Shown here: positions 6,635 to 59,599 of the stretch, one piece after another
How positions within the stretch are numbered: position 1 is the stretch's first letter
Layout: every line of letters starts with the position of its first letter
Source: an uncultured Gammaproteobacteria bacterium
GTDB taxonomy: Bacteria > Patescibacteriota > Patescibacteriia > UBA11705 > DATKZF01
Length of the DNA: 64,000 bases
Reading direction: 5' to 3'
Assembly (NCBI GenBank): GCA_964411255.1
Contig: CAYPKD010000004.1
Location: 13,093-77,092 of the forward strand
The notes under the pieces: generated by a model
What the model saw: only the letters and a program-made list of their open reading frames with translations
What the model was told of the DNA's origin: nothing
Database searches by the model: none
Translations under genes and position numbers: made by a program

Positions 6635-7309
6635 ATGAAAGAAAAACCAAAACAATCACTTGAAAATCAATTGCAAATGGCCCGCCCCAAGCGTGCTGAA
6701 GTTAAGCGTGTCCCTTTGACTCCAGAAGAAAAGGAATTTTTAGGTGAGATTATGGATAAGGCTGTGGCAGCAGAAAAGGCAGGGAAGCTGCAAGAAGCAT
6801 TAGATTTATATACTGATTATAAAAATGAATTATTAAAAATTAAAGAAGAAAAAGAAAAATTTGATAAAATAAAAGAAGAACCAGGCATTAAAAGCCTGAT
6901 TGCTATGGGTTTAGATAGAAAATTTATTGAAGAAAACTTTGATCTGACAAAGCTACCTGAGATTAAATCAAAAGGTGACCTGTTATTTAGTGGCATGAAA
7001 ATTAAAGAATTTCCTAATATAACGGTTAATGGCAATTTGGATTTGGGAAGCTCAACAATTAATAAATGGGATAGCGGGGGATTAATGATTAATGGAGATT
7101 TTATTTTATCTGCCGTAGATACAAAGTCATTGCCAGATGGTATATTTGTTGTTGGAAATGTATATTTGCAGAATTCAACAATACAGGATTTGCCTGATGA
7201 ATTTCATGTTGACAGAGATATATATGTTAAAAATTGTAATGCTAAAGTAAAACAAAAAGCTCAAGTGTTAAAGGTAACTGGAAGAATTAAAGGAAGTGTA
7301 CATAATTAG
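6635..7309 (+). CDS. expanded paralog family member A1: conserved N-terminal QMARPKR/LTPEEK helical module plus variable C-terminal LPxxLxVxG repeat domain
   Basis: N-terminal 65 aa near-identical to 14 other ORFs in the window. C-terminal repeats (..LPDGIFVVGNVYLQNSTIQDLPDEFHVDRDIYV..) and a ..TGRIKGSV tail. Confidence 0.8.
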   Translation: MKEKPKQSLENQLQMARPKRAEVKRVPLTPEEKEFLGEIMDKAVAAEKAGKLQEALDLYTDYKNELLKIKEEKEKFDKIKEEPGIKSLIAMGLDRKFIEENFDLTKLPEIKSKGDLLFSGMKIKEFPNITVNGNLDLGSSTINKWDSGGLMINGDFILSAVDTKSLPDGIFVVGNVYLQNSTIQDLPDEFHVDRDIYVKNCNAKVKQKAQVLKVTGRIKGSVHN

Positions 7310-7337
7310 AAAATTCAAGCTGAAGATTTAAAAATTT

Positions 7338-8048
7338 ATGCATGAAAAAAGTTCAAAATCTTTCGAATCCCAACTCCAAATGGCCCGCCCCAAGCGTGCT
7401 GAGGTTAAGCGTGTGCCTTTAACTCCAGAAGAGAAAGAATTTTTAAGAAAAATTATGGATAAGGCAGTGGCTGCGGAAAAGGCTGGAGATTTGCAGCAAG
7501 CTTTGAATTTATATACGGATTATAAAAATGAATTATTAAAAATTAAAGAAGAAAAAGAAAAAAAAGAAAAAGAAGAAAAAGAAGAACGAGGGGGAATTAA
7601 ATGGACAAAGGAAAAATTAGAAAACTGGATTGCTAGCATTGGAATTGCTGAAGAAGATTTTGTGGAACAATATTTTGATTTATCCAAGTTGCCAAAATTA
7701 GAATCAAAAGGTTCTTTGGATTTCAGCAACCTTATGATTGATATGTTTCCTGCTGATATGAAAGTTAAAGGAACTCTTACGTTGAGTAAATCAGTATTTA
7801 GAAAGGGGTTTGGTTCCGGATTGATCGTTAAAGGAGATCTAATAATGAATCGTTCAGCTATTAGTCATTTACCTAATAATATAAAAATTGATGGTAAATT
7901 AATTTTACGAAATTCAACAGTACAAGATTTACCTGATGATATATACATTGGTTCAGATATTTGGGTTGGAAATTGTAAAGAAAAAGTAATTGAAAAAGCA
8001 GGAAGACTTAAAGCTGAAGGAAAAATTAAAGGTGATGTTAAATATTAA
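7338..8048 (+). CDS. paralog family member A2 (mosaic with A4)
   Basis: Same N-terminal module. Central ERGGIKWTKEKLENWIASIGIAEEDFVE and C-terminal LPDDIYIGSDIWVGNCKEKVIEKAGRLKAEGKIKGDVKY are identical to A4. Confidence 0.8.
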   Translation: MHEKSSKSFESQLQMARPKRAEVKRVPLTPEEKEFLRKIMDKAVAAEKAGDLQQALNLYTDYKNELLKIKEEKEKKEKEEKEERGGIKWTKEKLENWIASIGIAEEDFVEQYFDLSKLPKLESKGSLDFSNLMIDMFPADMKVKGTLTLSKSVFRKGFGSGLIVKGDLIMNRSAISHLPNNIKIDGKLILRNSTVQDLPDDIYIGSDIWVGNCKEKVIEKAGRLKAEGKIKGDVKY

Positions 8049-8056
8049 TATCAAGT

Positions 8057-8764
8057 ATGAAATCAGAAAAAGCTGCACAATCACTCGAATCCCAACTTCA
8101 AATGGCCCGCCCGCGGCGCCATGAGGTTAAGCGTGTGCCTTTAACACCTGAAGAAAAGGGATTTCTCGGCGATATTATGGATAAGGCAGTGGCTGCGGAA
8201 AAGGCTGGAAAACTAGCTGAGGCAATTGAATTTTATACAGATTATAAAAATGAATTATTAAAAATTAAAAATAGGATTGAGAAAGAAGAAAGAGGGGAAA
8301 TAGAATGGACAAAGGAAAATCTGGTGGAGTGGGCAAAAGATATAGGTAAGGATGAAAAATTTGTAGAAGATAATTTTGACTTAACTAAATTACCTAAACT
8401 TGAAACAAAGAGCGATTTGACCTTAGATTTTGCAGTTATAGATAAATTCCCTGCAGCAATGAAAGTTAATGGAACGCTTATTATGAACAATGCAACCATA
8501 AAAAAATGGATTGGAACCAATTTAAGTATTAGAAGAAATTTATTTTTGTTTGGAGCAAAAACTGATTATCTGCCAGATAATACTATGGTCTTTCAAGGCA
8601 ACCTCGATATAAGCCAAAGTTCAATTAAAGATTTGCCAGATGATATCTTTATTGGAGGTAGTATTTCAATTGAAGGCGCAAAGCATGAAAAAAAATTAGC
8701 CCAAAAAGCAAGAGAATTAAAAGCCAAAGAGCAAATTGAGGGAGAAATTATTACTAATATGTAG
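8057..8764 (+). CDS. paralog family member A3
   Basis: Same N-terminal module (MKSEKAAQSLESQLQMARPRRHEVKRVPLTPEEKGFLGDIMDKAVAAEKAG..). Divergent C-terminal repeat region. Tail ..AKEQIEGEIITNM. Confidence 0.8.
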   Translation: MKSEKAAQSLESQLQMARPRRHEVKRVPLTPEEKGFLGDIMDKAVAAEKAGKLAEAIEFYTDYKNELLKIKNRIEKEERGEIEWTKENLVEWAKDIGKDEKFVEDNFDLTKLPKLETKSDLTLDFAVIDKFPAAMKVNGTLIMNNATIKKWIGTNLSIRRNLFLFGAKTDYLPDNTMVFQGNLDISQSSIKDLPDDIFIGGSISIEGAKHEKKLAQKARELKAKEQIEGEIITNM

Positions 8765-8797
8765 TCTGTCGATGAGTTTATTTAACTAAAAATATTT

Positions 8798-9508
8798 ATG
8801 AAAAAAGAACAACAATCATTCGAATCCCAACTCCAGATGGCCAGACCAAAACGATCTGAGGTTAAGCGTGTCCCATTGACTCCAGAGGAAAAGGAATTTC
8901 TGGGTGAGATTATGGGCAAGGCTGTGGCTGCTGAGAAAGCTGGGGAATTGAAAGAGGCTTTGAATTTATATACGGATTATAAAAATGAATTATTTAAAAT
9001 TAAAGAAGAAAAAGAAAAAAAAGAAAAAGAAAAAGAAAAAGAAGAACGAGGGGGAATTAAATGGACAAAGGAAAAATTAGAAAACTGGATTGCTAGCATT
9101 GGAATTGCTGAAGAAGATTTTGTTGAAAATCATTTCAATTTATTTAAATTACCAAAATTAGAATCAAAAGGTTTTTTAAATTTCAGCAACCTAATGATTG
9201 CCACATTTCCAGCCAATATGGAAGTGAATGGAGATCTTATACTGCAAAATGCTGAGGTAAAAAAATGGATTGGCTCTGGATTGAGAATAACAGGAGGTTG
9301 CAAATGTGTCAGCGCAAAAATAAAAAATTTGCCAGAAAGAACTACGATTCATGGTGATCTGTCAATAATAAATTCAACTATTGAGGATTTACCTGATGAT
9401 ATATACATTGGTTCAGATATTTGGGTTGGAAATTGTAAAGAAAAAGTAATTGAAAAAGCAGGAAGACTTAAAGCTGAAGGAAAAATTAAAGGTGATGTTA
9501 AATATTAA
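8798..9508 (+). CDS. paralog family member A4 (mosaic with A2)
   Basis: Same N-terminal module. A middle block different from A2 is flanked by blocks identical to A2. Confidence 0.8.
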   Translation: MKKEQQSFESQLQMARPKRSEVKRVPLTPEEKEFLGEIMGKAVAAEKAGELKEALNLYTDYKNELFKIKEEKEKKEKEKEKEERGGIKWTKEKLENWIASIGIAEEDFVENHFNLFKLPKLESKGFLNFSNLMIATFPANMEVNGDLILQNAEVKKWIGSGLRITGGCKCVSAKIKNLPERTTIHGDLSIINSTIEDLPDDIYIGSDIWVGNCKEKVIEKAGRLKAEGKIKGDVKY

Positions 9509-9516
9509 TATCAAGT

Positions 9517-22177: not shown

Positions 22178-22293
22178 GGAATATTCGAATGGCTAATTTT
22201 AGCAATTCGTTGAACATATACAAGTTAGCTGAAAAGGTATGGCCATAGGGGCACGTTCCTTAACATAATACTCAAAATATTTTGGAGGAAAAA

Positions 22294-23712
22294 ATGAGTG
22301 TTATTACAATTGATGCATTCACTGGTATGTATGGATTTAAGCTGGCAAACAGTAGTGGAGAACCCATTACGTTTGTCAAAAAGGAGGGACATGTTTTTTT
22401 GGACAATAGACCGTCCAAAGCGATTACTGGTATGATCATCGACGGTGAATACAAGCCGTGGAGTGAGATTGGTGTCGGTCATATGTCAGAGGAAGGTACG
22501 GTCCGCTGTATGCGAGGCCAGAGCTCTGACAGGCCGTGCACCAACGTGCGAAGTGCGGCAGACGTTGTCTGTCTCGATATGTATCCCGTTCTGCTTTGCG
22601 TGGATCATGCCAAAGCGGGTTTGTCCCATGCGCGGTCAAAGTATGGGGATCGAATCATGTTCCGACCTCTCCAATCAAGGCTCGCATTTGAGTTGAGGAA
22701 CAATCAGGTTCAGGACCTGATTGCTTCTGGCGAAGGTGGCATGACGAGAGAGCAGCTGATCAAGGCTTTCTCAAGCGTCAAGGCCACGTACAAGCTGGAT
22801 GGCCGCGGAGGAGTCGATTTTGACTCTGCCGATATAGACATGGATCAACTCGAACTGGTGGCCGAGCAGCATTCGGTTGACGGTTCCAAGGCTGACAATG
22901 CCTCTACCAAGGATTCGTTTTTCCTGGTCGGTGACAACAATGAAGAAGACGAAGAACGTTTCTTCGTTTTCTCCGGGCAGAATGCTTTGGCAGCCAGAAG
23001 CGAAGGATGTTCTTCCTTCCCGCTGTCTGAGGCTCTGCTCTATCACCGCAACGGTTTCAAGATGTGGGAAAAGGTAGAGGCGCTGCTATTCGGAGAAGAT
23101 CCCAAGGGATTTCCGATCAAAGAATTGGTCGAAGAAATCTTCGCGGATCTGCTCAGGCCTTGCCCTGGTGATAAGGACTACAGGGCTGAAATCTGGGTGG
23201 AATATCCCAAGGCCTTGGACTTCAAGGTTCTGGTCAGGGCAGCGGTCAAGGCCGGGGTGCTGCAGGATGGCACCGAGCTGAAAGAAGATGAAATCGACAA
23301 TCTCAAGAGCGATCCTCTTTCGCTCATTCGTGGCAACTACGACGGAAAGACCGTCCGTTGGCATGTGATGCGCAAGAGTCTGGCCTTCCTGGCTGCTAGG
23401 ATTCTCAACAAGGCTCGCGAGGGTTCGAGAAGGCAGCAGCCCCATGCGCGACCGTATCCGCTTTGTAGCGGACTGCCCTATCAGCGCGAGAATATCCGGG
23501 CGAAGGCCAAGGAAGCTCGCGCAACCTGGGATGATCTGGATGCTCATGAGCCGACTGCTGAGGAGCAGGCCAAGAATAAGAGGCGCAACAAGCGTTTTGA
23601 CGACAGGGGCAAGGGTGCGCGACGTCGAGCGCGTCCGGTTCCTCGGAAGAAAACCAAAGCAGAAAAGCAGGCTGAATTGCATGCCGAGTTGGATGGCCAC
23701 AATGCTGGCTAA
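22294..23712 (+). CDS. compositionally foreign (GC-rich) hypothetical protein with a basic Arg/Lys-rich C-terminal tail. The track ORF begins at a TTG at 22282.
   Basis: About 50-55% GC by eye versus about 30% in flanks. Long ORF with SD and consensus promoter. Tail KRRNKRFDDRGKGARRRARPVPRKKTKAEKQ. No family recognised. Confidence 0.6.
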   Translation: MSVITIDAFTGMYGFKLANSSGEPITFVKKEGHVFLDNRPSKAITGMIIDGEYKPWSEIGVGHMSEEGTVRCMRGQSSDRPCTNVRSAADVVCLDMYPVLLCVDHAKAGLSHARSKYGDRIMFRPLQSRLAFELRNNQVQDLIASGEGGMTREQLIKAFSSVKATYKLDGRGGVDFDSADIDMDQLELVAEQHSVDGSKADNASTKDSFFLVGDNNEEDEERFFVFSGQNALAARSEGCSSFPLSEALLYHRNGFKMWEKVEALLFGEDPKGFPIKELVEEIFADLLRPCPGDKDYRAEIWVEYPKALDFKVLVRAAVKAGVLQDGTELKEDEIDNLKSDPLSLIRGNYDGKTVRWHVMRKSLAFLAARILNKAREGSRRQQPHARPYPLCSGLPYQRENIRAKAKEARATWDDLDAHEPTAEEQAKNKRRNKRFDDRGKGARRRARPVPRKKTKAEKQAELHAELDGHNAG

Positions 23713-39672: not shown

Positions 39673-41748
39673 TTATCTAAGCCAATCGTCAACCTGATCA
39701 TCTGTCGGGCTTGGCACAGGTGGCAATGGCGGATGATATTTTATTGAGTCTAATTTGTTCAGAATATCCAGCTCTTGATTTAATTCATTATCCCCTATTT
39801 TATCCATTTCATTTTGGAAATATTTTGCAAAATCTTCAAAAATGTCTACATAATGTTCAGAAACAACAAGCTCCAATGACTGTCGCTCCCATTGGCCAAG
39901 CTCATATGGCCATGGCGCAATTAATCCAATTTCCTCAGTTACCCGGAAATCCATTACTTCTGGTTCTGGCATTCTGCCTGATGTCATGCCGCTATAATAT
40001 TCTCTTTCATCAATTATCCAATTTTTTATTAAATCAGCATATCTTGAAAGTAAAATACCTTTTTGAATTCCATTGTTTTGATAATAATCAGATTTTTTAT
40101 TTTCAAAATCAATCTTTTTTTCATCAGAATCTTTTTTTCCAGATCTGTCTTCATACGTTGTCTTTAATACAAGTTTACCATTATCTGATGTTTTTTTAAG
40201 TTTTAATAGTACAATTCCACCTTTGGTCTCTCCTTCCTTTGTTTTTGAAGGAAACAAAGTATTTACTTTCATAATTTCTCCGGTAGCTTCATCTGCTTCA
40301 GGTGATCCATAAACTTTTTCAATATCATAACCGTCAGCTTCTAATATTAAATTTAGATCAAAGACCAGTGGCGTAACCATAAATTCAAATTCATCATCCA
40401 TTCTGGTTTTGAATTCATCTTCTGAATGAACAGAATAATAATTTGCTCCTCTGATTTTGGTTAAAGATTCAACAAGATCAGTATTAAAATCAACTCCAAT
40501 TCCAATAAATGTGGTATAAAGGCTATCTTCTGAATTGTTTTCCAGCTGTGAAAATAACCCGCCTCTGGTTGTATCTCCCAAGTTTGGCATTGCATCAGTT
40601 AAAAATATTATTCTATTCTCATATTCATCAGGATTCAATGCCCCTAGCTCATCAAAAAGCTCTGTGCCCTCTTTCATCCCAGCTTCCATATTTGTGCCGC
40701 CCATTGGTTGAATTTTTAAAATATGATCTTCAATTGCATTCATGTCAGTATTACCAACATAATTGAGCGGCTTGGCAAGATATCCATTATCGTCAAAAAG
40801 CACCATCCCAAACCTGTCTTCATCATTTAAATGGTCAAGCAAGGCAACAACAGATTCATTAGCAATTTCCATTTTAGTTTTGTCTGATTCTTTTAAATTC
40901 TCCCTTTCAAGCTGATTGCCAAACTGATCATAATAATATTTATTGAATTGAGAGCTCATTGATCCTGAAATGTCCAACACAATCACCAGGTTAAGCTTTT
41001 TGCGCTCAAAATCGCTTTCCTTTAGGTTTGAATTTAAACCGACTGCTAGATAGTAATCATCTTTATTTGAAATAGGATCTTTAGAAATTGCATATGAATA
41101 GGACGGGCAAAATAATTTTTCGCATTCTTGAGCTTTGCCAGTATCAAAATAATAGTCATAAAACAGGCCTTCATAAGTTATATCAGTTGGCAATGGCAAA
41201 AAATTATTTTTAATATTTTCTCTAAAATTATTAATATCTTTTGCTCCGCCAACAGCAAAACCAATGCTATCATCACCTGCTCCTCCCATTCCATCAGCAG
41301 GAGCCAGACTGGTTTCCAATGCCATATTTTTCATACTTGGTACGCCAGCTTTTTGAGACAAGCTTCTGAAAAATCCAGCATCTTCTTCTTCCTTAGAATA
41401 ATCAAATGTCCAGTCATCCACTTTTTCAACCTGAACAAATACTGGTGGTTCGCCTTGTATATATGTTTTATAAAAATACGGGCCCCCAAAGGCCAGAAGC
41501 AAGATAATTGCTGTAGCGCCTGAAAATGCAAATATCCAGCGCCGCAATTTTTTTAATTGCGCTTTTTTTTCACTGCCCTTTGCTTTTACTTTTAGTTTCT
41601 TTTGCAAATCATTTACAAATTGCTTTGATATTACAATGTTTGGCTTGTTTTTGAGCATTTCTTTTAGCATTTTATTTAATTTTGCCTCATGTTTTTTCAT
41701 AGTGGGATCGATTTTGTAGATTTCTTTTAGTATTTTGTTGATGTTCAT
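39673..41748 (-). CDS. membrane-anchored von Willebrand factor A (VWA) domain protein; candidate anti-sigma factor partner of the upstream ECF sigma
   Basis: About 75-aa cytoplasmic N-terminus and a single TM (WIFAFSGATAIILLLAFGG). Extracytoplasmic VWA with MIDAS DISGSMSS. Gene immediately downstream of and co-directional with the ECF sigma gene. Confidence 0.65.
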   Translation of the reverse strand: MNINKILKEIYKIDPTMKKHEAKLNKMLKEMLKNKPNIVISKQFVNDLQKKLKVKAKGSEKKAQLKKLRRWIFAFSGATAIILLLAFGGPYFYKTYIQGEPPVFVQVEKVDDWTFDYSKEEEDAGFFRSLSQKAGVPSMKNMALETSLAPADGMGGAGDDSIGFAVGGAKDINNFRENIKNNFLPLPTDITYEGLFYDYYFDTGKAQECEKLFCPSYSYAISKDPISNKDDYYLAVGLNSNLKESDFERKKLNLVIVLDISGSMSSQFNKYYYDQFGNQLERENLKESDKTKMEIANESVVALLDHLNDEDRFGMVLFDDNGYLAKPLNYVGNTDMNAIEDHILKIQPMGGTNMEAGMKEGTELFDELGALNPDEYENRIIFLTDAMPNLGDTTRGGLFSQLENNSEDSLYTTFIGIGVDFNTDLVESLTKIRGANYYSVHSEDEFKTRMDDEFEFMVTPLVFDLNLILEADGYDIEKVYGSPEADEATGEIMKVNTLFPSKTKEGETKGGIVLLKLKKTSDNGKLVLKTTYEDRSGKKDSDEKKIDFENKKSDYYQNNGIQKGILLSRYADLIKNWIIDEREYYSGMTSGRMPEPEVMDFRVTEEIGLIAPWPYELGQWERQSLELVVSEHYVDIFEDFAKYFQNEMDKIGDNELNQELDILNKLDSIKYHPPLPPVPSPTDDQVDDWLR

Positions 41749-49563: not shown

Positions 49564-50271
49564 TTATTTTAGATCAATTTCTCCTTTAATTTTACCTTCT
49601 TTTTTACGTTTTACCAGCTCCTTTATCATTTCTGTTTCATGCTCTTTTATATATACTCTTCCCCCAACATATATATCATCTGGTATTTTTTTATTTTTTA
49701 TTGAAGTTCCGGATAAACTTAGAGATCCTTCAACTCTAAGGCTATTGGGTAAACAATCTATATTTGCGTTCACAAAAGTACAAGTTTGTGTAACATGCAA
49801 ATTAGCTGGCATCTTTTCAACAGTTGAATTTACTAATGATAAATTGCCATTAATGCGTAAATTGTTTGGTAAAAACGATAACTTCATACTTCGTAAGTTT
49901 AGATCTGATTTTGTTTTTATTACTGGTAATTCATCTAATATAAAAGCTGCATCAACATAATTTGCCGCATTTTCCTCCCAGGAATAAATCTGAATTGCCC
50001 AGCTAATTAAATGAGCTCTGGCAACTTTAACGTCTTTAATCTCCTTTTCAACTTTTTTTTCTTTTATTTTAAGCAACTCATTTTTATAATCAGTATAAAA
50101 ATTTAATGCTTCCTGCAATTCTCCAGCTTTTTCCGCAGCTACTGCTTTATCCATAATCTCACCCAGAAAGTCCTTTTCTTCTGGAGTTAAAGGTACACGC
50201 TTAACCTCAGCCCGCCGCGGGCGGACCATTTTTAATTGACTTTCTAATGATTGAGGTTCTTCTGTTTTCAT
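49564..50271 (-). CDS. paralog family member C1
   Basis: N-terminal module MKTEEPQSLESQLKMVRPRRAEVKRVPLTPEEKDFLGEIMDKAVAAEKAGELQEALNFYTDYKNELLKIKE. C-terminal LPNNLRINGNLSL / LPNSLRVEGSLSL repeats. Tail ..KKEGKIKGEIDLK. Confidence 0.8.
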   Translation of the reverse strand: MKTEEPQSLESQLKMVRPRRAEVKRVPLTPEEKDFLGEIMDKAVAAEKAGELQEALNFYTDYKNELLKIKEKKVEKEIKDVKVARAHLISWAIQIYSWEENAANYVDAAFILDELPVIKTKSDLNLRSMKLSFLPNNLRINGNLSLVNSTVEKMPANLHVTQTCTFVNANIDCLPNSLRVEGSLSLSGTSIKNKKIPDDIYVGGRVYIKEHETEMIKELVKRKKEGKIKGEIDLK

Positions 50272-50274
50272 ATT

Positions 50275-50988
50275 TTACATTTCAGTTATTACTCTACCTC
50301 TGATATTACCTTCTGATTTTAATTGGTGGGCTTTGTTAATCACTTTTTTATTGCAATTTACAAGAAAAATATCTGCTCCAACATATAATTCATCTGGCAA
50401 ATCCTGAATTGTTGAATTATTCATATCTAGATTTCCATCAACATGCATATTTTCTGGTAAAGATTCAATTTGGGCGTGATCCATAAGAACGTCTCCATTC
50501 ACATCTAAATTTGTGCCAATCCATTCTTTTACTACAGCTCTATCCAGATCCAAACGTCCATAAATTGTTATATTTGCAGGAAATTCATCGATTACCTTAG
50601 CAGCCAATTCTAAATCTCCCACAGTCTCCAGTTTAGGGAGTTTTGGTATATCAAAAATTTTGTGAGCCTTTTCCTCAAAAGTCATTTCTTCTGGTGGTGT
50701 TTTAAAGACATTTTCAACCCACTTTACCAATTTTTCTTTTGTCCAGCCTGTTTCTTCTTTTTTTTCTTTTTCCCTTGTTTCTTTAATCCTTAACAATTCA
50801 TTCTTATAATCCGTGTAAAAATTTAAGGCCGCTTGCAATTCTCCTGCCTTTTCCGCAGCCACAGCCTTATCCATAATCTCACCTAGAAAAGCCTTTTCTT
50901 CTGGAGTTAAAGGTACACGTTTAACCTCATGGCGCCGCGGGCGAGCCATTTTGAGTTGGGATTCGAGTGATTGGGCTTTTTCCTTCAT
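50275..50988 (-). CDS. paralog family member C2
   Basis: Same N-terminal module. C-terminal repeats. Tail ..KSEGNIRGRVITEM. Confidence 0.8.
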   Translation of the reverse strand: MKEKAQSLESQLKMARPRRHEVKRVPLTPEEKAFLGEIMDKAVAAEKAGELQAALNFYTDYKNELLRIKETREKEKKEETGWTKEKLVKWVENVFKTPPEEMTFEEKAHKIFDIPKLPKLETVGDLELAAKVIDEFPANITIYGRLDLDRAVVKEWIGTNLDVNGDVLMDHAQIESLPENMHVDGNLDMNNSTIQDLPDELYVGADIFLVNCNKKVINKAHQLKSEGNIRGRVITEM

Positions 50989-50991
50989 ATT

Positions 50992-51645
50992 TTATAAAAA
51001 TTTTATTTCACCTTTGATCAGACCTTTTTCCTTTAATTTATTAAATTTATCCTTCAACTCATTAAGAGTTTTAATAGTTAATCCTATATCTTCTACATAT
51101 AAATTCCCACCAATAAATATTGAATCAGGGATATGCATATTTTCAATATCATAACCTGGTATTAATAAATTTGCGCCAACATGAAAGTTTTCAGGTAAAC
51201 TTTTTATTCTTGTATTTCTCAGCGTACAGCTACCTGCAACTTTAAAATTATTCGGTAATTCTGTGGCATTTGAATCTTCTAATTTAAAATTATCTTTAGT
51301 CCTAATTTCATTAGAGTCATCATCCATACAGGTAGGATCAAGCCATTGAAATATCCATTCCATTGGATTTCCTTCAATGAATTCATCAGCCCAAGCTTCT
51401 AGATCTGCATAACCCCAGGTTTGCTCTACTTTTTCCTTTATTTTCAACAATTCATCTTTATATTCTTGATAATATTCAATTGCCTTTGCTAATTCTCCAG
51501 CCTTTTCCGCAGCCACAGCCTTATCCATTATCTCACCTAGAAAAGCCTTTTCTTCCGGAGTAAGCGGTACACGTTTAATCTCAGCGCGTTTTGGGCGGGC
51601 CATTTGGAGTTGGGATTCGAGTGATTGTTCTGGAGTATTTTGCAT
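50992..51645 (-). CDS. paralog family member C3
   Basis: Same N-terminal module. Distinct Trp-rich middle (TWGYADLEAWADEFIEGNPMEWIFQWLDP). LPNNFKVAGSCTL / LPENFHVGANLLI repeats. Tail ..KEKGLIKGEIKFL. Confidence 0.8.
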   Translation of the reverse strand: MQNTPEQSLESQLQMARPKRAEIKRVPLTPEEKAFLGEIMDKAVAAEKAGELAKAIEYYQEYKDELLKIKEKVEQTWGYADLEAWADEFIEGNPMEWIFQWLDPTCMDDDSNEIRTKDNFKLEDSNATELPNNFKVAGSCTLRNTRIKSLPENFHVGANLLIPGYDIENMHIPDSIFIGGNLYVEDIGLTIKTLNELKDKFNKLKEKGLIKGEIKFL

Positions 51646-51650
51646 AGTTC

Positions 51651-52352
51651 TTATGTTATTTTAATATCACCCTTGATATCGCCCTGCTTTTTAAATTTCT
51701 CTATTTCTTTTACCATATCTGGGTCTGATTCACTTACATATACTTCTTCTTCAACATGTAAAGATTCAGGTTCTTTTTTATTATTTATTTCAGCTTTTGT
51801 CATATCTAAAAGACCTCCAATAATCATGGTTTTTGGTAATTGATTAATTTTTACAAATCTTAAAATACAATTTTCATTCGTATATAAAGCATTTGGCATT
51901 TTCTTAATAGTACAGTTGGTTGAAACAAAGCTCCCATTAACATGTAAAACGTTTGGCAAATCCTCAAGTATCATATTATTAAAGGTCATATTTCCTTTTG
52001 TTTGAATTATAGGTAATTCATCTAATACAAAATTTGCCTCTACATATCTCTCAGCTCTTTGTGTTGATAATCCTAGATTTCTTATAGCCCAATGAATTAA
52101 ATCTTGCTCAGTCCATTCCTTTTCTTCCTCTTCTTTTCTTTCTTTTATTTTTAGCAATTCATTCTTATAATCAGTATATAAATCCAAAGCTTCCTGCAAT
52201 TCCCCAGCCTTTTCCGCAGCCACAGCCTTATCCATAATTTTTCCTAAAAATTCCTTCTCTTCTGGTGTTAAAGGAACACGCTTAACCTCAGCACGCTTTG
52301 GCCGGGCCATTTTGAGTTGGGATTCTAAGGATTGTGGTTGTTCTTTTGGCAT
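51651..52352 (-). CDS. paralog family member C4
   Basis: Same N-terminal module. Tail ..KKQGDIKGDIKIT. Confidence 0.8.
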   Translation of the reverse strand: MPKEQPQSLESQLKMARPKRAEVKRVPLTPEEKEFLGKIMDKAVAAEKAGELQEALDLYTDYKNELLKIKERKEEEEKEWTEQDLIHWAIRNLGLSTQRAERYVEANFVLDELPIIQTKGNMTFNNMILEDLPNVLHVNGSFVSTNCTIKKMPNALYTNENCILRFVKINQLPKTMIIGGLLDMTKAEINNKKEPESLHVEEEVYVSESDPDMVKEIEKFKKQGDIKGDIKIT

Positions 52353-52380
52353 AAAGTCATTAGATATTTATCATTGTTCA

Positions 52381-52542
52381 TTAGGGTTTAAAATAGGGCC
52401 GCTGCTTTGGATTACGCAAAACTAACAGAAAGATTTCTCCATTCCGTCCGCCCTTGGCGGACTTCAGTCGAAATGACAAGCGAGGGCAGCGAGCCATTTG
52501 GAGTTGGGATTTGGGTAATTGTGGCTTTTCTTTTATGTTCAT
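52381..52542 (-). pseudogene. truncated paralog remnant: first 18 codons of a family gene (MNIKEKPQLPKSQLQMAR) fused to a copy of the hairpin repeat element
   Basis: Reverse-strand translation matches the family N-terminus up to QMAR and then reads into the repeat element (52385-52500, reverse orientation; about 85% identity to copy 1). Confidence 0.6.
52385..52500 (-). repeat. GC-rich hairpin repeat element, copy 3 (inside the truncated paralog)
   Basis: Reverse complement reads CGCTGCCCTCGCTTGTCATTTCGACTGAAGTCCGCCAAGGGCGGACGGAATGGAGAAATCTTTCTGTTAGTTTTGCGTAATCCAAAGCAGCGG. Collinear with copy 1, including the palindromic hairpin and the TAGTTTTG..CCAAAGC(A/T)GCGG tail. Confidence 0.55.
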
Positions 52543-52548
52543 ACGAAT

Positions 52549-53256
52549 TTAATTCTTCCAAATAATTTCTCCAATGATTTTCCCTTCACCTTTTAATTTA
52601 TTTAATAGGTCCATAACATTTCCATGAATTGGTTTATTCAAATACACATTGCCTCCAATGAAAATTGTATCTGATATTTTATTATCAATAAAAACTATGT
52701 CATCTAATATTAAATCTCCACTAATATTTAATAGGGCTGGTATTGTATCAATATTGGCTTTTTGTATTAATAAATTCTTATCAACAGTTAATGTCTGAGG
52801 CATTTTTTTAATGATACCTTGTATGGTCATAGATCCTTTTACATGAATATTTTCAGGTATCGTTTCTATATTGACATGTGAAGATAAATCTAAGTCTTTC
52901 TTGGCAATTATTTTGGGATATTCTTCAAAATCAAAATGCTCATCTACCCAGCTTTCACAATCTCTGGCAATTTCATGTTGTTTTGCCCATTCTATAAGAT
53001 CATTTCTTTGCTGCAGTCGTAAAGATTGCTCTTTTTCTAATCGTTCTTTAATCTTCAATAATTCATTCTTATATTCTGTATACAAATCCAAAGATTTTTG
53101 CAATTCCCCGGCCTTTTCCGCAGCCACAGCCTTATCCATAATGTCGCCTAAAAATTCTTTTTCCTCAGGTGTCAATGGTACACGCTTAACCTCAGCACGC
53201 TTTGGCCGGGCCATTTTAAGTTGATTTTCTAATGATTGCGGCTGTTCTTTCTTCAT
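52549..53256 (-). CDS. paralog family member C5 (track ORF extends to 53319; family-consistent start MKKEQPQSLENQLKMARP at 53256)
   Basis: Same N-terminal module. Start lies 1 nt after the AMMECR1 stop. Tail ..KGEGKIIGEIIWKN. Confidence 0.75.
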   Translation of the reverse strand: MKKEQPQSLENQLKMARPKRAEVKRVPLTPEEKEFLGDIMDKAVAAEKAGELQKSLDLYTEYKNELLKIKERLEKEQSLRLQQRNDLIEWAKQHEIARDCESWVDEHFDFEEYPKIIAKKDLDLSSHVNIETIPENIHVKGSMTIQGIIKKMPQTLTVDKNLLIQKANIDTIPALLNISGDLILDDIVFIDNKISDTIFIGGNVYLNKPIHGNVMDLLNKLKGEGKIIGEIIWKN

Positions 53257-53257
53257 A

Positions 53258-53791
53258 TTATTCTGAAAAAATTTCGGACTGATAAGAATAAATCTCGACT
53301 TTAGGATCTTTCCAAGCATCTTCTGGTAAGCCTGCCTTTAAGCATAAATTACTTAAAAAGTCTTCTTTTGTTTTAAAATGTTTCCAAACTTGAGGCAGGT
53401 ATGTGGCTTTTTCTGCACCATATTTTAATACAATGCCATCAATGCCGATTTTAATATGATCCAGCTTTACTTTTTCCGGAACGGTCAAAACTGATATTTC
53501 AATTTTAATATCTTTTAATTCATCGTTTTGCAAAGGTAAAAACCGAGGATCATCAAAAGCTGCAGCTAATGCATTTTGTTTTACTGCTTCCCAAAGTGAT
53601 GTAATTGCCTCAATATAACCAATACAGCCGCGCAATTCTTCATTCTTATGTAAAGTAACAAACACACCTCTGTGCTCCAGAAACTTTTTATTATCAGTTT
53701 GAGGATTAAAATCAGTACCCTCAAGCTTTGCTTCAATGCTTTTCCTTGCTAATTGCAATAATTCGATTTTTTCATAATCAAAAAAAGGCAT
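53258..53791 (-). CDS. AMMECR1-domain protein (AmmeMemoRadiSam system protein A family)
   Basis: ..GVFVTLHKNEELRGCIGYIEA.. The LRGCIG motif is diagnostic of AMMECR1. Confidence 0.85.
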   Translation of the reverse strand: MPFFDYEKIELLQLARKSIEAKLEGTDFNPQTDNKKFLEHRGVFVTLHKNEELRGCIGYIEAITSLWEAVKQNALAAAFDDPRFLPLQNDELKDIKIEISVLTVPEKVKLDHIKIGIDGIVLKYGAEKATYLPQVWKHFKTKEDFLSNLCLKAGLPEDAWKDPKVEIYSYQSEIFSE

Positions 53792-55337: not shown

Positions 55338-55997
55338 TTAAAAACGTTCTTTTATACCTAAAACTCGTCCTGCTCTTAAAGCCTCTAGAGCTGATTTGAT
55401 TAAAGCTTTATTATCTGGGCTTACATAAACTTTACCGTTTACAGTATTGAATTGAGGTAATGATTTTATGTTTAAGCCCCGCAAATCTAGATCACCATTC
55501 ACCTCTAAATGTTCAGGTAATTCTATTATGTTTTTAGAATCTTTTAATGAAAGATCTCCAATAATGTATAAATTCTCAGGTAAATATTCCAAATTATCTT
55601 CATTTTCAATGCTCAATGAGCTATTAATAATAATTTTTCCTGGAAAATCCTCATCAAATTCTACTGCTGAATTCACCCAAAATTTTGCAAATGAAATGTT
55701 TGTCAAATTCGTTTTAACCCAGTCAATAAGCCCTTTCCTGGCTTTTTCAATAATTTCTTGTTTTGACATTGTTTGGCTTTCCTTTCTTTCTTTTATTTTC
55801 AGCAATTCATTCTTGTAATCAGTATAAAATCCCAAGGCCTTTTCTAATTCTCCAGCCTTTTCAGCAGCCACTGCCTTATCCATAATCTCGCCCAGAAACT
55901 TCTTTTCTTCTGGAGTCAATGGCACGCGCTTAACCTCAGCGCGCTTTGGACGGGCCATTTTGAGTTGGGATTCTAAAGATTGGGATTTTTCCGGCAT
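55338..55997 (-). CDS. paralog family member D1
   Basis: N-terminal module MPEKSQSLESQLKMARPKRAEVKRVPLTPEEKKFLGEIMDKAVAAEKAGELEKALGFYTDYKNELLKIKE. LPENLYIIGDLSL / LPEHLEVNGDLDL / LPQFNTVNGKVYV repeats. Confidence 0.8.
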   Translation of the reverse strand: MPEKSQSLESQLKMARPKRAEVKRVPLTPEEKKFLGEIMDKAVAAEKAGELEKALGFYTDYKNELLKIKERKESQTMSKQEIIEKARKGLIDWVKTNLTNISFAKFWVNSAVEFDEDFPGKIIINSSLSIENEDNLEYLPENLYIIGDLSLKDSKNIIELPEHLEVNGDLDLRGLNIKSLPQFNTVNGKVYVSPDNKALIKSALEALRAGRVLGIKERF

Positions 55998-55998
55998 A

Positions 55999-56667
55999 TT
56001 ATTTTACTTGAGTAACTTTACCTATTTGTCCTTTTTTTTCCAATTTTTTAGCTTGATCTAGCAGATCTGTATCAGTTTTTTTAATAAATATATTCATTGC
56101 TACTTTTAGATCATCTGGTAACTCTTTGATATTCGCATTTACAAGATGAAGATCTTTATTAACTACTAGGTTTCTAGGCAAATACTTAAAATCATTCCGT
56201 TCAATAATTAAAGTCCCATCAACAATTAAATGATTTGGTAATCTTTTAATATCATAAACAGCAGGATTGATTCGAAGATCACCTTTTATTTTAAGATGTG
56301 GAAGAGGGGCTGATCTGTCAAACTTCTTCTCTATCCAATTTACAGCAGCTTGTCCTGAAAATCCGACTTCATTATGTACCCAGTCTAATACCTCTTCAGG
56401 AAGATTTAAATCAAAACCCTCATCTGACTTTTTTTTCTTTTCTTGTTCTTTTTTATCTTTTATCCTTAATAATTCATTTTTATAATCAGTATACAAATTC
56501 AAAGCTTCTTGCAATTTCCCAGTTTTTTCCGCAGCTACAGCTTGATCCATTATCTTTCCGAGAAAATCCTTTTCTTCAGGAGTTAAAGGCACACGCTTAA
56601 CTTCAGCGCGCTTTGGGCGGGCCATTTTGAGTTGATTTTCTAATGATTGGGGTTGTTCTTTTGGCAT
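55999..56667 (-). CDS. paralog family member D2
   Basis: Same N-terminal module. LPNHLIVDGTLII / LPRNLVVNKDLHL / LPDDLKVAMNIFI repeats. Confidence 0.8.
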   Translation of the reverse strand: MPKEQPQSLENQLKMARPKRAEVKRVPLTPEEKDFLGKIMDQAVAAEKTGKLQEALNLYTDYKNELLRIKDKKEQEKKKKSDEGFDLNLPEEVLDWVHNEVGFSGQAAVNWIEKKFDRSAPLPHLKIKGDLRINPAVYDIKRLPNHLIVDGTLIIERNDFKYLPRNLVVNKDLHLVNANIKELPDDLKVAMNIFIKKTDTDLLDQAKKLEKKGQIGKVTQVK

Positions 56668-56675
56668 AATTAGAG

Positions 56676-58157
56676 CTAAATTTCTATTACTCTTTTTACA
56701 TATGTATTTTCATCTTTAGCAATGATATACGCCTTATTATCATTAATTGGTACAACATGGTAAATTTTATCATAATCCTCACTAACTTTTTCTCTTTTTT
56801 CATTTACCATAAACCATTTATCACCTTTTTTTGCTTTAAAAACTAGCGTTCCTTCAATATCCTCAACAGAACTAATTTTATCATATTCATCACTAATTTT
56901 TTCACCTTTTTCATTAATTAAAAATTGTTTTCCATCGTTTTCTGCATAAAAAATGATCCTACCTCCAATATCTAATGGATGCCTGACAAAATCATAGTCT
57001 TTTCCAATAATTTCACCCTTTTCATTTACAATGTATTTTTTTTTCTTGATTTTAACTTGATAAAACATAATTCCTGCAACATTGAAAATGAACTCGATTC
57101 CATCATAATCTTCACTAAGTTTTTTGCCTTTTTCATCCACGATAAACCATTTATCATCTTTTTTTGCTCCAAACACAAGTTTGCCCCCGATGTTTTTTGG
57201 AGTACCAATTTCCTCATAATCTTGTTCAAGTTCTTCCCCTTTTTCATTGACGATAAACCATTTATTATCTCTGGTTGCCGAGAAAACAATATTCCCCCCA
57301 ATATTATCCAGATATGAAATCCATTCATATCCTTTACTGATTTTTTCTCCTTTTTCATTAAATACAAACCATTCGCTACCCTGTCTGGCATGGAAAAACA
57401 TTTTATCTTCAAAAAATTGAGGAGGATCAATAGCATTATATTCTTGCCCATATTTACCTTCTTTTTCATTCACCAGAAACCATTTACTACTATTTTTTTT
57501 TGTTTCACAGGCATGAAATACACATTCTCCTTTTACATTCATTAGATTTGAAACAGATGAATAATTGCTGCCAATCTTTTCTCCTTTCTCATTTACTACA
57601 AAGTATTCATCGTTTTTCATTCCACTAATAAATAACTGCCCGGCTATATCAGTAATATGATGTATTTCATCAAACGCTGCTCCTATTCTTTCTCCCTGTT
57701 CATTAACTACAAAACTCTTCTTATCCTGTTCAACAGGAAAAAATAACCTGCCTAGGCTATGCATAGGATTATGAGCAAAGTCATAGCCTTTTCCGATCTT
57801 TCTGTCTTGCCCATAAATAACATAAAATTTGCCATCTTTTTTTGCACTAAAAGCAATTTTACCTTCTATATCTGAAGGCTCATAATATTCTTCGTACTCA
57901 TCTAAATTTATTGTATATTCCTGTTCCTTTTCTGAAATAGATTCCTTTATCTTTAACAATTCATTCTTATAGTCTGTATAAAATCCCAAAGCCTTTTCTA
58001 ATTCTCCAGCCTTTTCCGCAACTACAGCTTTTTCCATAATCTCACCTAAGAATTCTTTTTCCTCAGGTGTCAACGGTACACGTTTAACCTCAGCGCGCTT
58101 TGGACGTGCCATCTTCAATTGACTTTCAAGTGATTGTTCAGTTTGTTCTGCTTTCAT
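56676..58157 (-). CDS. paralog family member D3: N-terminal module fused to about ten WG-like (KWF-variant) beta repeats
   Basis: N-terminal module, then about 38-aa repeats DKWFIVNEKGEKISxDYDxI....IGGxLVFxAKKD. 493 aa. Confidence 0.8.
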   Translation of the reverse strand: MKAEQTEQSLESQLKMARPKRAEVKRVPLTPEEKEFLGEIMEKAVVAEKAGELEKALGFYTDYKNELLKIKESISEKEQEYTINLDEYEEYYEPSDIEGKIAFSAKKDGKFYVIYGQDRKIGKGYDFAHNPMHSLGRLFFPVEQDKKSFVVNEQGERIGAAFDEIHHITDIAGQLFISGMKNDEYFVVNEKGEKIGSNYSSVSNLMNVKGECVFHACETKKNSSKWFLVNEKEGKYGQEYNAIDPPQFFEDKMFFHARQGSEWFVFNEKGEKISKGYEWISYLDNIGGNIVFSATRDNKWFIVNEKGEELEQDYEEIGTPKNIGGKLVFGAKKDDKWFIVDEKGKKLSEDYDGIEFIFNVAGIMFYQVKIKKKKYIVNEKGEIIGKDYDFVRHPLDIGGRIIFYAENDGKQFLINEKGEKISDEYDKISSVEDIEGTLVFKAKKGDKWFMVNEKREKVSEDYDKIYHVVPINDNKAYIIAKDENTYVKRVIEI

Positions 58158-58183
58158 ATTGTTATATGATATATGTTACATGA

Positions 58184-58906
58184 TTAAAGTTTTTCAGGCA
58201 TAAATGATGCCTTTTCCGTTTTCATTAATTCTTTAATATACTTTTGTGCTTTTTTATCTTTTTTTATTGACTCTTCAAGATCCTTTTCAATCTCTGGCTT
58301 AATGTCCATCTCAAATCGTTCAAATGATTTTTCTGATAAATTTTCATCATTTAAAATTTCAATAATTTTCAAACTCTCTTCAGGTAAATTAAAAAAATCA
58401 AGCGAATTATCCTTTTCAACATTATATTTGTCAATCAATATTCTTCTAAATTTTCTCAGACCACCTATTTCAGCCATTGAATCTAAAACGAGCTCTTTTT
58501 GATTAACTACAAAATTTATTTCTTCCTGCCAATGCTGCGGGTCATCAGCCTTAGCCTTAGCCTTTGCCATTGTATATCTGCGAATTAAATAATCTAAAAT
58601 CATTTCTCTTTTATATAATGTTTTAATATTATCAATTATCTCTTCATGTTTTTTCTCCTTTATACGATTTATTTCTTTTTTCCTCTCTTCCTGCAATTTA
58701 TCGTTTATTTTCATTAATTCGTTTTTATAATCAGTATACAAATCTAGGGCTTCTTTTAGTTTCCCCGCTTTCTCTGCCGCCACTGCCTTATCCATTATCT
58801 TTCCGATAAATTCCTTTTCTTCTGGCGTTAAGGGCACACGCTTAACCTCACTCCGCCGCGAGCGGGCCATCTTCAATTGACTTTCAAGTGATTGTTCTGC
58901 TTTCAT
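58184..58906 (-). CDS. paralog family member D4: N-terminal module fused to an unrelated charged helical C-terminal region
   Basis: N-terminal module (MKAEQSLESQLKMARSRRSEVKRVPLTPEEKEFIGKIMDKAVAAEKAGKLKEALDLYTDYKNELMKI). C-terminal part lacks LP repeats. Confidence 0.75.
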   Translation of the reverse strand: MKAEQSLESQLKMARSRRSEVKRVPLTPEEKEFIGKIMDKAVAAEKAGKLKEALDLYTDYKNELMKINDKLQEERKKEINRIKEKKHEEIIDNIKTLYKREMILDYLIRRYTMAKAKAKADDPQHWQEEINFVVNQKELVLDSMAEIGGLRKFRRILIDKYNVEKDNSLDFFNLPEESLKIIEILNDENLSEKSFERFEMDIKPEIEKDLEESIKKDKKAQKYIKELMKTEKASFMPEKL

Positions 58907-58921: not shown

Positions 58922-59557
58922 TTACTGTTCTTCCAATCCCTTTACTCTCCCTTCGTTTATGGCTTTTAGTACAGATTCTCTTAATTTAGTTTTTGATGCA
59001 TTACTAATAACTTTGCAATCAACTCTAATATCATCAGGCAATACTACAATATCAGTATCCAACAAATTTAAATTTCCTCTAACATGTAAATTATTGGGTA
59101 AATCGCCTAATGATGTGCCTTTTAATGAGAATTCTCCATCAATCTCTAAATTTTCAGGCATTTCAGTACAATTTTTTTTATGTTCAATTTTAATAGGACT
59201 ATCAACTATAATTTTTGGATATTTACTAAAATCAACATTAGCATCTGTCCATGATTCAATATTTGTATCTTCTATAAAAATTGATGAAAGCCATTCAATA
59301 AATTTTTGCCTGGTATTTTTTATTTTTTCAATTTGTTCCTTTTCTTCCTTTATTTTATTTAATTCATTTTTATAATCTGTATAATACCCCAAAGCCTCAG
59401 CCAATTTTCCTGCCTTTTCCGCAGCTACAGCTTTATCCATAATCTCACCTAAAAAAGCCTTTTCTTCTGGAGTTAATGGCACACGCTTAACCTCACTCCG
59501 CCGCGGGCGGGCCATTTGGAGTTGATTTTCTAATGATTGTTTTGGCTTTTCTTTCAT
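58922..59557 (-). CDS. paralog family member D5 (track ORF extends to 59596; family-consistent start MKEKPKQSLENQLQMARP at 59557)
   Basis: Same N-terminal module. LPNNLHVRGNLNL / LPDDIRVDCKVIS repeats. Confidence 0.75.
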   Translation of the reverse strand: MKEKPKQSLENQLQMARPRRSEVKRVPLTPEEKAFLGEIMDKAVAAEKAGKLAEALGYYTDYKNELNKIKEEKEQIEKIKNTRQKFIEWLSSIFIEDTNIESWTDANVDFSKYPKIIVDSPIKIEHKKNCTEMPENLEIDGEFSLKGTSLGDLPNNLHVRGNLNLLDTDIVVLPDDIRVDCKVISNASKTKLRESVLKAINEGRVKGLEEQ

Positions 59558-59599
59558 AATAAAGGTAATATATTTCCGCTGATTTGGGATATTCAATTC

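Follow-up and report, generated by a model that had tools for sequence, protein, structure and literature searches.

The window analyzed here, 64,000 nt of contig CAYPKD010000004.1 (positions 13,093 to 77,092; GenBank assembly GCA_964411255.1, deposited as an uncultured Gammaproteobacteria bacterium and placed by GTDB in the Patescibacteriota), carries two adjoining genes, D3 and D4, whose products begin with the same helical N-terminal module (N-module) and continue with unrelated C-terminal parts. The reading that we favor, at a probability of roughly 55%, is that D3 and D4 belong, as intact genes, to a highly expanded family specific to this lineage, in which the N-module serves as a common docking or targeting handle for varied C-terminal domains. 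Such a modular handle is well supported as regards architecture and evolution; its function is what we infer. D3 (56676..58157, 493 aa) and D4 (58184..58906, 240 aa) are open reading frames (ORFs) on the minus strand and, as the initial annotation had it, both start with the N-module. The module is common to 15 paralogs in the window; the genome as a whole has at least 20 family genes. From the ORF list, alignments and AlphaFold2 models, D3 can be divided into the N-module (residues 1-72; 57942..58157), in which a short helix and a basic linker with RPKRAEVKRVPLTPEEK precede a TPR/MIT-like helical hairpin, an acidic linker with an N-terminal cap strand (residues 73-94; 57876..57941; strand 81-84 in the model), and a repeat domain (residues 95-493; 56679..57875) that comprises a partial unit, ten complete units of 37 aa and a C-terminal cap, and is predicted to form a beta-propeller. 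The stretch at residues 73-94 is kept in the aligned relatives P0003 and P0050. D4 consists of the N-module (residues 1-70; 58697..58906, by alignment) and an all-helical C-terminal domain (residues 71-240; 58187..58696), which is supported by alignments and a domain hidden Markov model (HMM). All of these segments are read from the minus strand.

The module spans about 72 aa and opens all 15 family proteins of the window with the consensus QSLESQLKMARPKRAEVKRVPLTPEEKEFLGEIMDKAVAAEKAGELQEALxLYTDYKNELLKIKE. In the alignment of the 15 paralogs, the mean column identity is 84% and 35 positions are invariant. This conservation ends abruptly past 'KIKE', and a charged, E/K-rich helical spacer then leads into the interchangeable C-terminal domain. 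Among the 13 paralogs with an LP body, the N-terminal cores have a mean identity of 84.6% versus 29.5% for the bodies, and the modules of D3 and the LP gene at 55338 are 95% identical over 64 aa, with unrelated bodies behind them. Over the 105 paralog pairs, the mean proportions of nonsynonymous (pN) and synonymous (pS) differences in the N-core were 0.10 and 0.62, respectively; the median substitution rates were 0.105 (nonsynonymous, dN) and 1.15 (synonymous, dS), with 17 pairs beyond saturation and a dN/dS of about 0.09. The D3 and D4 cores have a pS of 0.95, and identical amino acids are encoded by the same codon in only 59% of cases. Because synonymous sites are saturated and pN is low, the paralogs are evidently old and their amino-acid identity has been kept by selection. 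Judged by these sequence comparisons, the N-module is held almost invariant by purifying selection, with the bodies diverging freely. Gene conversion or recent duplication as the source of the N-module identity was ruled out by the saturated synonymous sites.

These data also bear on the most skeptical explanation, namely that the shared N-terminus is a functionless by-product of recent duplication or gene conversion and that D3 and D4 are chimeric accidents or assembly artefacts. The tandem arrangement of the genes, whose N-terminal DNA is 79% identical on average, would be in keeping with it, as would the frequent breaking of metagenome contigs at the arrays and the existence of some copies with frameshifts or deletions. 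Apart from saturated synonymous sites at a pN of 0.10, it is opposed by the recurrence of D3- and D4-type genes in other genomes with modules only 52-59% identical, by the identity of D3 and D4 across at least three independent assemblies, and by the confident folding of both proteins in the models. The exact D3 protein is present on eight contigs and D4 (= P0014) on six, from at least three independent samples or assemblies and with the same neighbors. Moreover, the JGI contig Ga0309772_1000015 (364,661 bp) matches the window, and each protein looked up on it was unchanged and in the same gene order. Assembly chimerism of D3 and D4 was rejected on the strength of these identical sequences, and the by-product explanation as a whole is contradicted by the results and hardly credible.

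To define the family, an exhaustive HMMER search with the module was carried out against 1.84 billion protein cluster representatives (E <= 0.001). It returned 67 matches, 19 of them with E <= 1e-30; word-indexed protein searches yielded only one or two relatives in each run and missed known members. About 54 of the 67 proteins carry the module once, within the first ~30 residues. Long matches made up of 5-13 stretches, P0024 and P0028 among them, were not counted as members of the family, since they are TPR_10/12-type kinase-associated repeat proteins. As far as these sequences indicate, the N-module is thus an autonomous unit that is always N-terminal and present in one copy per protein.

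The search also turned up the module fused to many other domains: the C-terminal parts of the ~54 module proteins fall into 15 classes (BLAST, E < 1e-4). LP bodies are the largest class (13 representatives), followed by a domain of ~250-300 aa ending in G.R (8), the D4-type (5), the P0040-type (4), and the D3- and P0017-types (3 each); the remaining classes are pairs and singletons with two or one representatives each. The latter include two groups of WD40 proteins (the WD40 domain of P0052 matches Pfam at 6.7e-23), a class with 'KWD.W..HPQGVII' beta-repeats (P0064, P0069), helical repeats with the motif 'LAGLDS..AW', and another type of leucine-rich repeat (LRR). It is the more distant relatives that have WD40 bodies and at least 10 further classes. 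Most paralogs in the window have the short, LRR-like LP body, for which five paralogs gave no Pfam LRR match at E <= 1, and NCBIfam gave only a weak match to XopAE (E = 0.019). Several of the classes found on distant modules align with one another: the C-terminal parts of P0031, P0033, P0034, P0039, P0042, P0060, P0032, P0017 and P0049 form one domain of ~250-300 aa with the motifs GF..L..P, KGKT, GLTL.EYL, W.WL and a terminal G.R; it has no Pfam or PDB match and may be enzymatic.

It is worth noting that the module is not confined to LP-type repeats with D3 and D4 as isolated accidents, since both types recur in several genomes with multiple paralogs. D3-type genes comprise D3, P0003, a third copy in locus L003, P0027/L001, P0050 and P0074, and D4-type genes other than D4 were found as P0020 to P0022 and in L001, L019 and L021. 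P0003, from the window's own genome, encodes 460 aa with a C-terminal part 41% identical to that of D3 and sits among glycosyltransferase genes. A metagenome scan added 20 further loci, all from the Ga018043x sample set, whose arrays mix LP, D4-type, D3-type and other bodies; the module profile found nothing in the contigs of 185,579 GTDB species representatives. All three architectures occur within 10 kb on L001, a 170-kb ENA contig from a different genome, with one D3-type gene (531 aa), three D4-type genes (one of them split) and three LP genes. These seven genes (L001 10001-19980) lie around a pair of genes for a MoxR-like AAA_5 ATPase (467 aa) and for a CobT_C/vWA protein (660 aa), and a gene for a type IV secretion system (T4SS) pilin/TrbC lies 9 kb upstream of the array. 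The apparently stand-alone 72-aa module P0001 proved to be the front half of the split D4-type gene (L001 10001-10729, module subtype B), which has an intact counterpart of 242 aa on another contig (L021 5142-5915). We found no description of this family in the literature.

Clustering of the modules separated subtype A (VPLTPEEKEFLGEIMDKAVAAEKAG) from subtype B (VELTPDEDKRLFLILNKAIAAEKAG). Each subtype was found with LP, D3-type and D4-type bodies, and both are present in L001. The module of the D4-type protein P0022 is of the A-type, sharing 82-89% identity with the other A modules and 59% with B. Its C-terminal domain, in contrast, is nearest to the one encoded by L021_5142, a B-type gene (pairwise score 251 versus 130-194 for A-type genes). 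Since the N- and C-terminal parts of P0022 disagree in their relationships by these pairwise scores, they have different histories. Recombination of the module with different bodies is therefore strongly supported at the level of sequence relationships, and the proposal of the initial annotation that the module is a transferable unit on unrelated C-terminal domains is upheld by the 15 classes together with these conflicting N- and C-terminal relationships.

In the AlphaFold2 model of D3, the module forms helices at residues 10-17, 21-24, 31-49 and 53-77, with a basic stretch after the first short helix; across the family this basic linker reads MARPKRAEVKRVPLTPEEK. Two known folds are called to mind by the hairpin of the two long helices. 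The turn 'AEKAG-L-EA-LY' is a TPR/PPR hairpin signature, and a profile of the close family matched only the corresponding 'KAG.L.EAL.LY' turn of designer PPR/TPR proteins. However, there is one hairpin per protein and not a TPR array of three or more 34-aa hairpins, so that the likeness is to single TPR_10/12-type and designer PPR/TPR units. The second fold is the MIT domain (PF04212), found at the N-terminus of VPS4, spastin and katanin, with whose helices 1 and 2 the two long helices align. Pfam MIT matches to the module were recurrent in paralogs and relatives and remained below threshold (14.6-21.6 bits, E = 0.0002-0.04, cut-off 30). Against the MIT domain of VPS4A, a narrow module profile (A2) reached an hhalign probability of 28.7%, and a broad profile built from 24 diverse modules (A9) reached 79% over 34 columns that cover MIT helices 1-2 only. 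With A9, an hmmsearch of PDB gave E = 0.0036 for the VPS4A MIT domain, 0.007-0.02 for VPS4B and 1.9e-4 for the PICH TPR. The module differs from MIT domains in that it has no attached AAA ATPase and shows no conservation of the third MIT helix; both models instead have the second helix of the hairpin continuing straight (residues 53-77 in D3, 50-117 in D4). Assignment of the module to the MIT domain was rejected because the third helix lacks conservation and the score is under the Pfam gathering threshold. No family in Pfam, NCBIfam, PADLOC or PHROGs matched the module, and searches of PADLOC and PHROGs with D3, D4, LP members and five other architectures gave no significant match either. We conclude that the core of the module is a TPR/MIT-like hairpin and that the module represents a new domain family.

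For the body of D3, the initial annotation had described about ten repeats of about 38 aa resembling WG beta-repeats. The number was correct, with ten full units (starting at residues 111, 148, 185, 226, 263, 300, 337, 374, 411 and 448) and a partial unit at residues 95-110; a unit HMM found 11 units. The period, in contrast, is 37 aa: at an offset of 37 residues, BLOSUM62 scores average 1.36, compared with a maximum of -0.63 +/- 0.05 in 200 shuffles, and Tandem Repeats Finder reports a 111-nt period. The unit consensus is WFIVNEKGEKIGEEYDEIDNPEDIGGKIVFIAKKDKK, and the array closes in a C-terminal cap, NKAYIIAKDENTYVKRVIEI (NKAYIIAK..YVKRVIEI), which is kept in relatives. The AlphaFold2 model, built from a four-sequence alignment (the models of D3 and D4 both come from shallow alignments), has a mean predicted local distance difference test score (pLDDT) of 86.6 and a predicted TM-score (pTM) of 0.70; it is all-beta from residue 80, with three or four strands per 37-aa unit. 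A Foldseek search of PDB with this model gave 248 matches at E <= 0.001, of which the best 50 are all propellers. TM-scores were clearly highest, at 0.41-0.42, for the Vps10p domains of SorLA and sortilin, which have ten blades, versus 0.2-0.3 for 7- and 8-bladed propellers. The repeats are thus predicted to form a beta-propeller closest to the 10-bladed Vps10p type, the number of blades and the closure of the ring being read from the TM-scores of the model. D3 shares predicted four-stranded blades of ~37 aa with the ~10-bladed propellers of sortilin and SorLA and with PD40/TolB-type blades, although sequence identity is only ~10% and the number of units varies from 2-3 (P0050) to 11 among D3-type relatives.

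Membership in the WG family was not borne out. Pfam WG_beta_rep (PF14903) did not match D3 at E <= 1 and, with the limit relaxed to E <= 10, found neither P0003 and P0027 nor a concatemer of six consensus units; P0050 scored 7.5 bits (E = 5.9; gathering score 25.6). A double-unit profile of D3 (A7) aligned to one synthetic WG sequence, itself scoring 218 bits with PF14903, at an hhalign probability of 33.5% over 53 columns, in the register that had originally been proposed. WG repeats and D3 units are alike in period (~35 versus 37 aa) and in the order of motifs, W-x-hydrophobic-[IV]-[DN]-x-K-G-x..YD-x-[IV]..G-hydrophobic..K-x-x-K. They differ in that the D3 units have no Trp-Gly pair, Phe, Ile or Tyr standing at the Gly position (W/x then F, I, Y or L across units), and carry a 4-residue insertion. 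Pfam PD40 (PF07676) likewise found no match in D3, and hhalign against a single Pfam-verified synthetic PD40 proxy gave 14% over 25 columns. Pfam HTH_45 matches on D3-type repeats were discarded as an artefact, a short beta-hairpin match multiplied by the repeats, and tblastn searches of phage and plasmid record collections with D3 found nothing. We treat the D3 unit as an unclassified propeller repeat whose WG resemblance is real as a pattern; membership in the WG family is not established. A third D3-type gene of the window's genome (L003 9995-11336; ~263.8-265.1 kb of the contig) has ten near-identical 37-aa units (WF.VNEKGEKVGQDYD.V..PQDIGGKIAFSAKKDGK) behind an N-module with an internal deletion and a frameshift, so that the gene call is split into P0002 (51 aa) and an ORF of 373 aa. 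Most likely this copy is a pseudogene whose repeat array was homogenised recently.

The C-terminal part of D4 was characterized in the same manner. It shows no periodicity above shuffles, and AlphaFold2 models the protein as all helical (pLDDT 82.3), with the second helix of the module hairpin continuing as a 68-residue helix. Homologs in other genomes have the motifs WQEKI, KYN..L..F[DN]I[SP].EE and IKPE.K.D.EK.LR.DEK.Q.YVEEL in common with D4 in the alignments, and the C-domain HMM matched paralogs in L001, L002, L019 and L021. Fold searches of PDB and of BFVD (viral) gave no match with E < 1. The initial description of this part as helical and free of repeats therefore stands, and it is more than the mere charged region it was taken for, as it represents a conserved family of domains whose orthologs and paralogs are encoded in other genomes.

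If the favored reading is correct, the module would dock all family proteins to one shared partner or route, and the bodies, mostly of ligand-binding repeat type, would supply the specificity. Candidates for this partner are a host-cell or cellular machine and an export route. No hydrophobic segment, signal peptide or membrane segment was found in family proteins, which would be consistent with cytoplasmic adaptors or with export independent of Sec. A docking or targeting role, which we infer, would fit a module that is under strong purifying selection, is strictly N-terminal and precedes C-terminal domains of the binding type. Several observations weigh against this reading. In HMM and database searches, neither the D3-type repeats nor the D4-type domain ever turned up apart from the module, and the bodies may thus have arisen within the family instead of being borrowed from elsewhere. 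Examination of the regions flanking more than 30 loci revealed no partner, secretion apparatus or conserved non-family neighbor; the arrays have unrelated housekeeping genes around them (queA, trmH, AMMECR1, greA, serS, PBP2), and the AAA_5/vWA pair of the L001 array is not beside the arrays of the window. In addition, a small helical module of this kind could equally be an oligomerisation element.

The last point leads to the main rival explanation, in which the module is a self-association element: two hairpins, together with the long helix that follows, would pack into a helical bundle or coiled coil, through which paralogs would homo- or hetero-oligomerise and so present several binding domains, with no external partner. 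The 3-4 hydrophobic spacing of the hairpin helices and the long charged helix in which the second one continues (for 68 residues in D4) would suit such a structure, and hetero-oligomer compatibility would need a near-identical module across the paralogs of one cell, as is seen. On the other hand, a simple coiled coil has no need for the many charged surface residues and the basic RPKR..KRVPLTPEEK linker that are among the conserved positions, and the presence of two module subtypes in one genome (L001) fits two partners as well as it fits two oligomer classes. We consider self-association rather unlikely.

Alternatively, and as a special case of docking, the module may be an export or translocation domain and the family a group of effectors that are secreted and directed at a host or neighboring cell. 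An N-terminal module on many different, mostly protein-binding bodies would agree with this, as would the size, variability and arrayed organization of the family with its population-level deletions and pseudogenes, and the T4SS pilin/TrbC gene 9 kb from the L001 array. Patescibacteria commonly carry T4SSs with unknown cargo (PMC12102498), which also counts in its favor. Yet no secretion genes are next to the arrays in the window, and neither Pfam nor NCBIfam gave a match to a known trafficking-domain family. Moreover, known T4SS signals are C-terminal. Export in this specific form is, in our view, unlikely.

Two kinds of known systems are organized in a similar way. F-box families (FBXL, FBXW, FBXO, and bacterial F-box/LRR effectors such as Ralstonia GALA) combine a small helical N-terminal module, through which they dock to one common machine, with alternative recognition domains. 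By analogy, the present family would resemble them in placing a conserved N-terminal helical module on LRR, WD40/propeller or other bodies in many paralogs; it differs in having no Pfam F-box match and a helix, basic linker and hairpin in place of a three-helix motif. Shared N-terminal delivery domains are known from the translocation domain of Salmonella SspH1, SspH2, SlrP, SifA and SseJ, from LXG proteins of type VII secretion and from MIX proteins of type VI secretion. Here the analogy would lie in one N-terminal domain on unrelated bodies, some of them LRRs, in multi-copy families shuffled by recombination. Unlike those effectors, the family described here has no linked secretion system, its bodies are mostly binding repeats and not toxins, and it has no homology to any of those delivery domains.

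The family genes of the window are organized in arrays. D3 and D4 are part of a tight same-strand array with intergenic gaps of 1-26 nt, in which two LP-type paralogs lie directly downstream of D3 on the minus strand (55999-56667 and 55338-55997; span 55338..56667) and another adjoins D4 upstream (58922..59596, minus). The latter ORF probably starts at an internal Met, giving the 211-aa protein P0007. The array runs into queA, a SpoU-type methylase and AMMECR1, beyond which lies an array of five LP-type paralogs (49564..53319, minus); a second array of five is on the opposite, plus strand (6635..10287). Both five-gene arrays were identified from the ORF list and the module search. Promoter and terminator scans gave results at chance level only, no obvious Shine-Dalgarno motifs were seen upstream of family genes, and Rfam and tRNA scans of the whole window found nothing. 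Compared with window positions 8798-9508, locus L012 (852-1445) of the same population has 100% identical flanks and a 124-bp deletion in the LP repeats that truncates the protein, which represents either population-level structural variation or assembly collapse. Of the large contigs, that of 364 kb breaks off near 43.2 kb of the window and another of 316 kb within the plus-strand array (loci L009 and L012). Because large contigs end at or near family arrays, the paralogs appear to break assemblies, and family copy numbers in metagenome-assembled genomes are likely underestimates.

Some other genes nearby should be mentioned. The window encodes a vWA protein at 39673-41748, which does not adjoin an array. 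Elsewhere in this genome, 7 kb from P0003, a gene at L005 17752-20703 codes for a protein of 983 aa that contains a major-vault-protein shoulder domain (PF11978). Finally, an island of 1.3-1.4 kb at 22300-23700 of the window has 50-58% GC, compared with ~32% for the genome, and looks like foreign DNA. It contains a plus-strand ORF of 476 aa with a TTG start (22282-23712), for which neither Pfam nor Rfam gave a match.

A conserved handle with swappable bodies is a known principle in F-box proteins, polymorphic effectors and phage receptor-binding proteins. Here, however, the module, the 37-aa propeller repeat and the D4-type helical domain are all unclassified, with no match in Pfam, NCBIfam, PADLOC or PHROGs. 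The close family is limited to a single uncultivated lineage and takes up a noticeable share of a small genome there. It also illustrates cleanly how domains are shuffled in nature while the module next to the junction stays under strong selection. More tentatively, the family might be an unrecognised receptor or effector system, in which a MIT/TPR-like tag and a stiff charged spacer plug more than 15 recognition domains (LRR-like, three kinds of propeller, helical domains and the ~300-aa domain) into one machine; an export apparatus, an AAA+ protein or protease, or a host ESCRT-III-like target would be candidates for it. If this doubtful possibility were true, a small-genome and probably symbiotic bacterium would deploy at least 20 specificities for interaction with its host or prey, a prokaryotic counterpart of F-box-type adaptors. 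The partner of the module, if found, would point to how such a large set of binding proteins is deployed and would bear on the host interaction of small-genome uncultivated bacteria.

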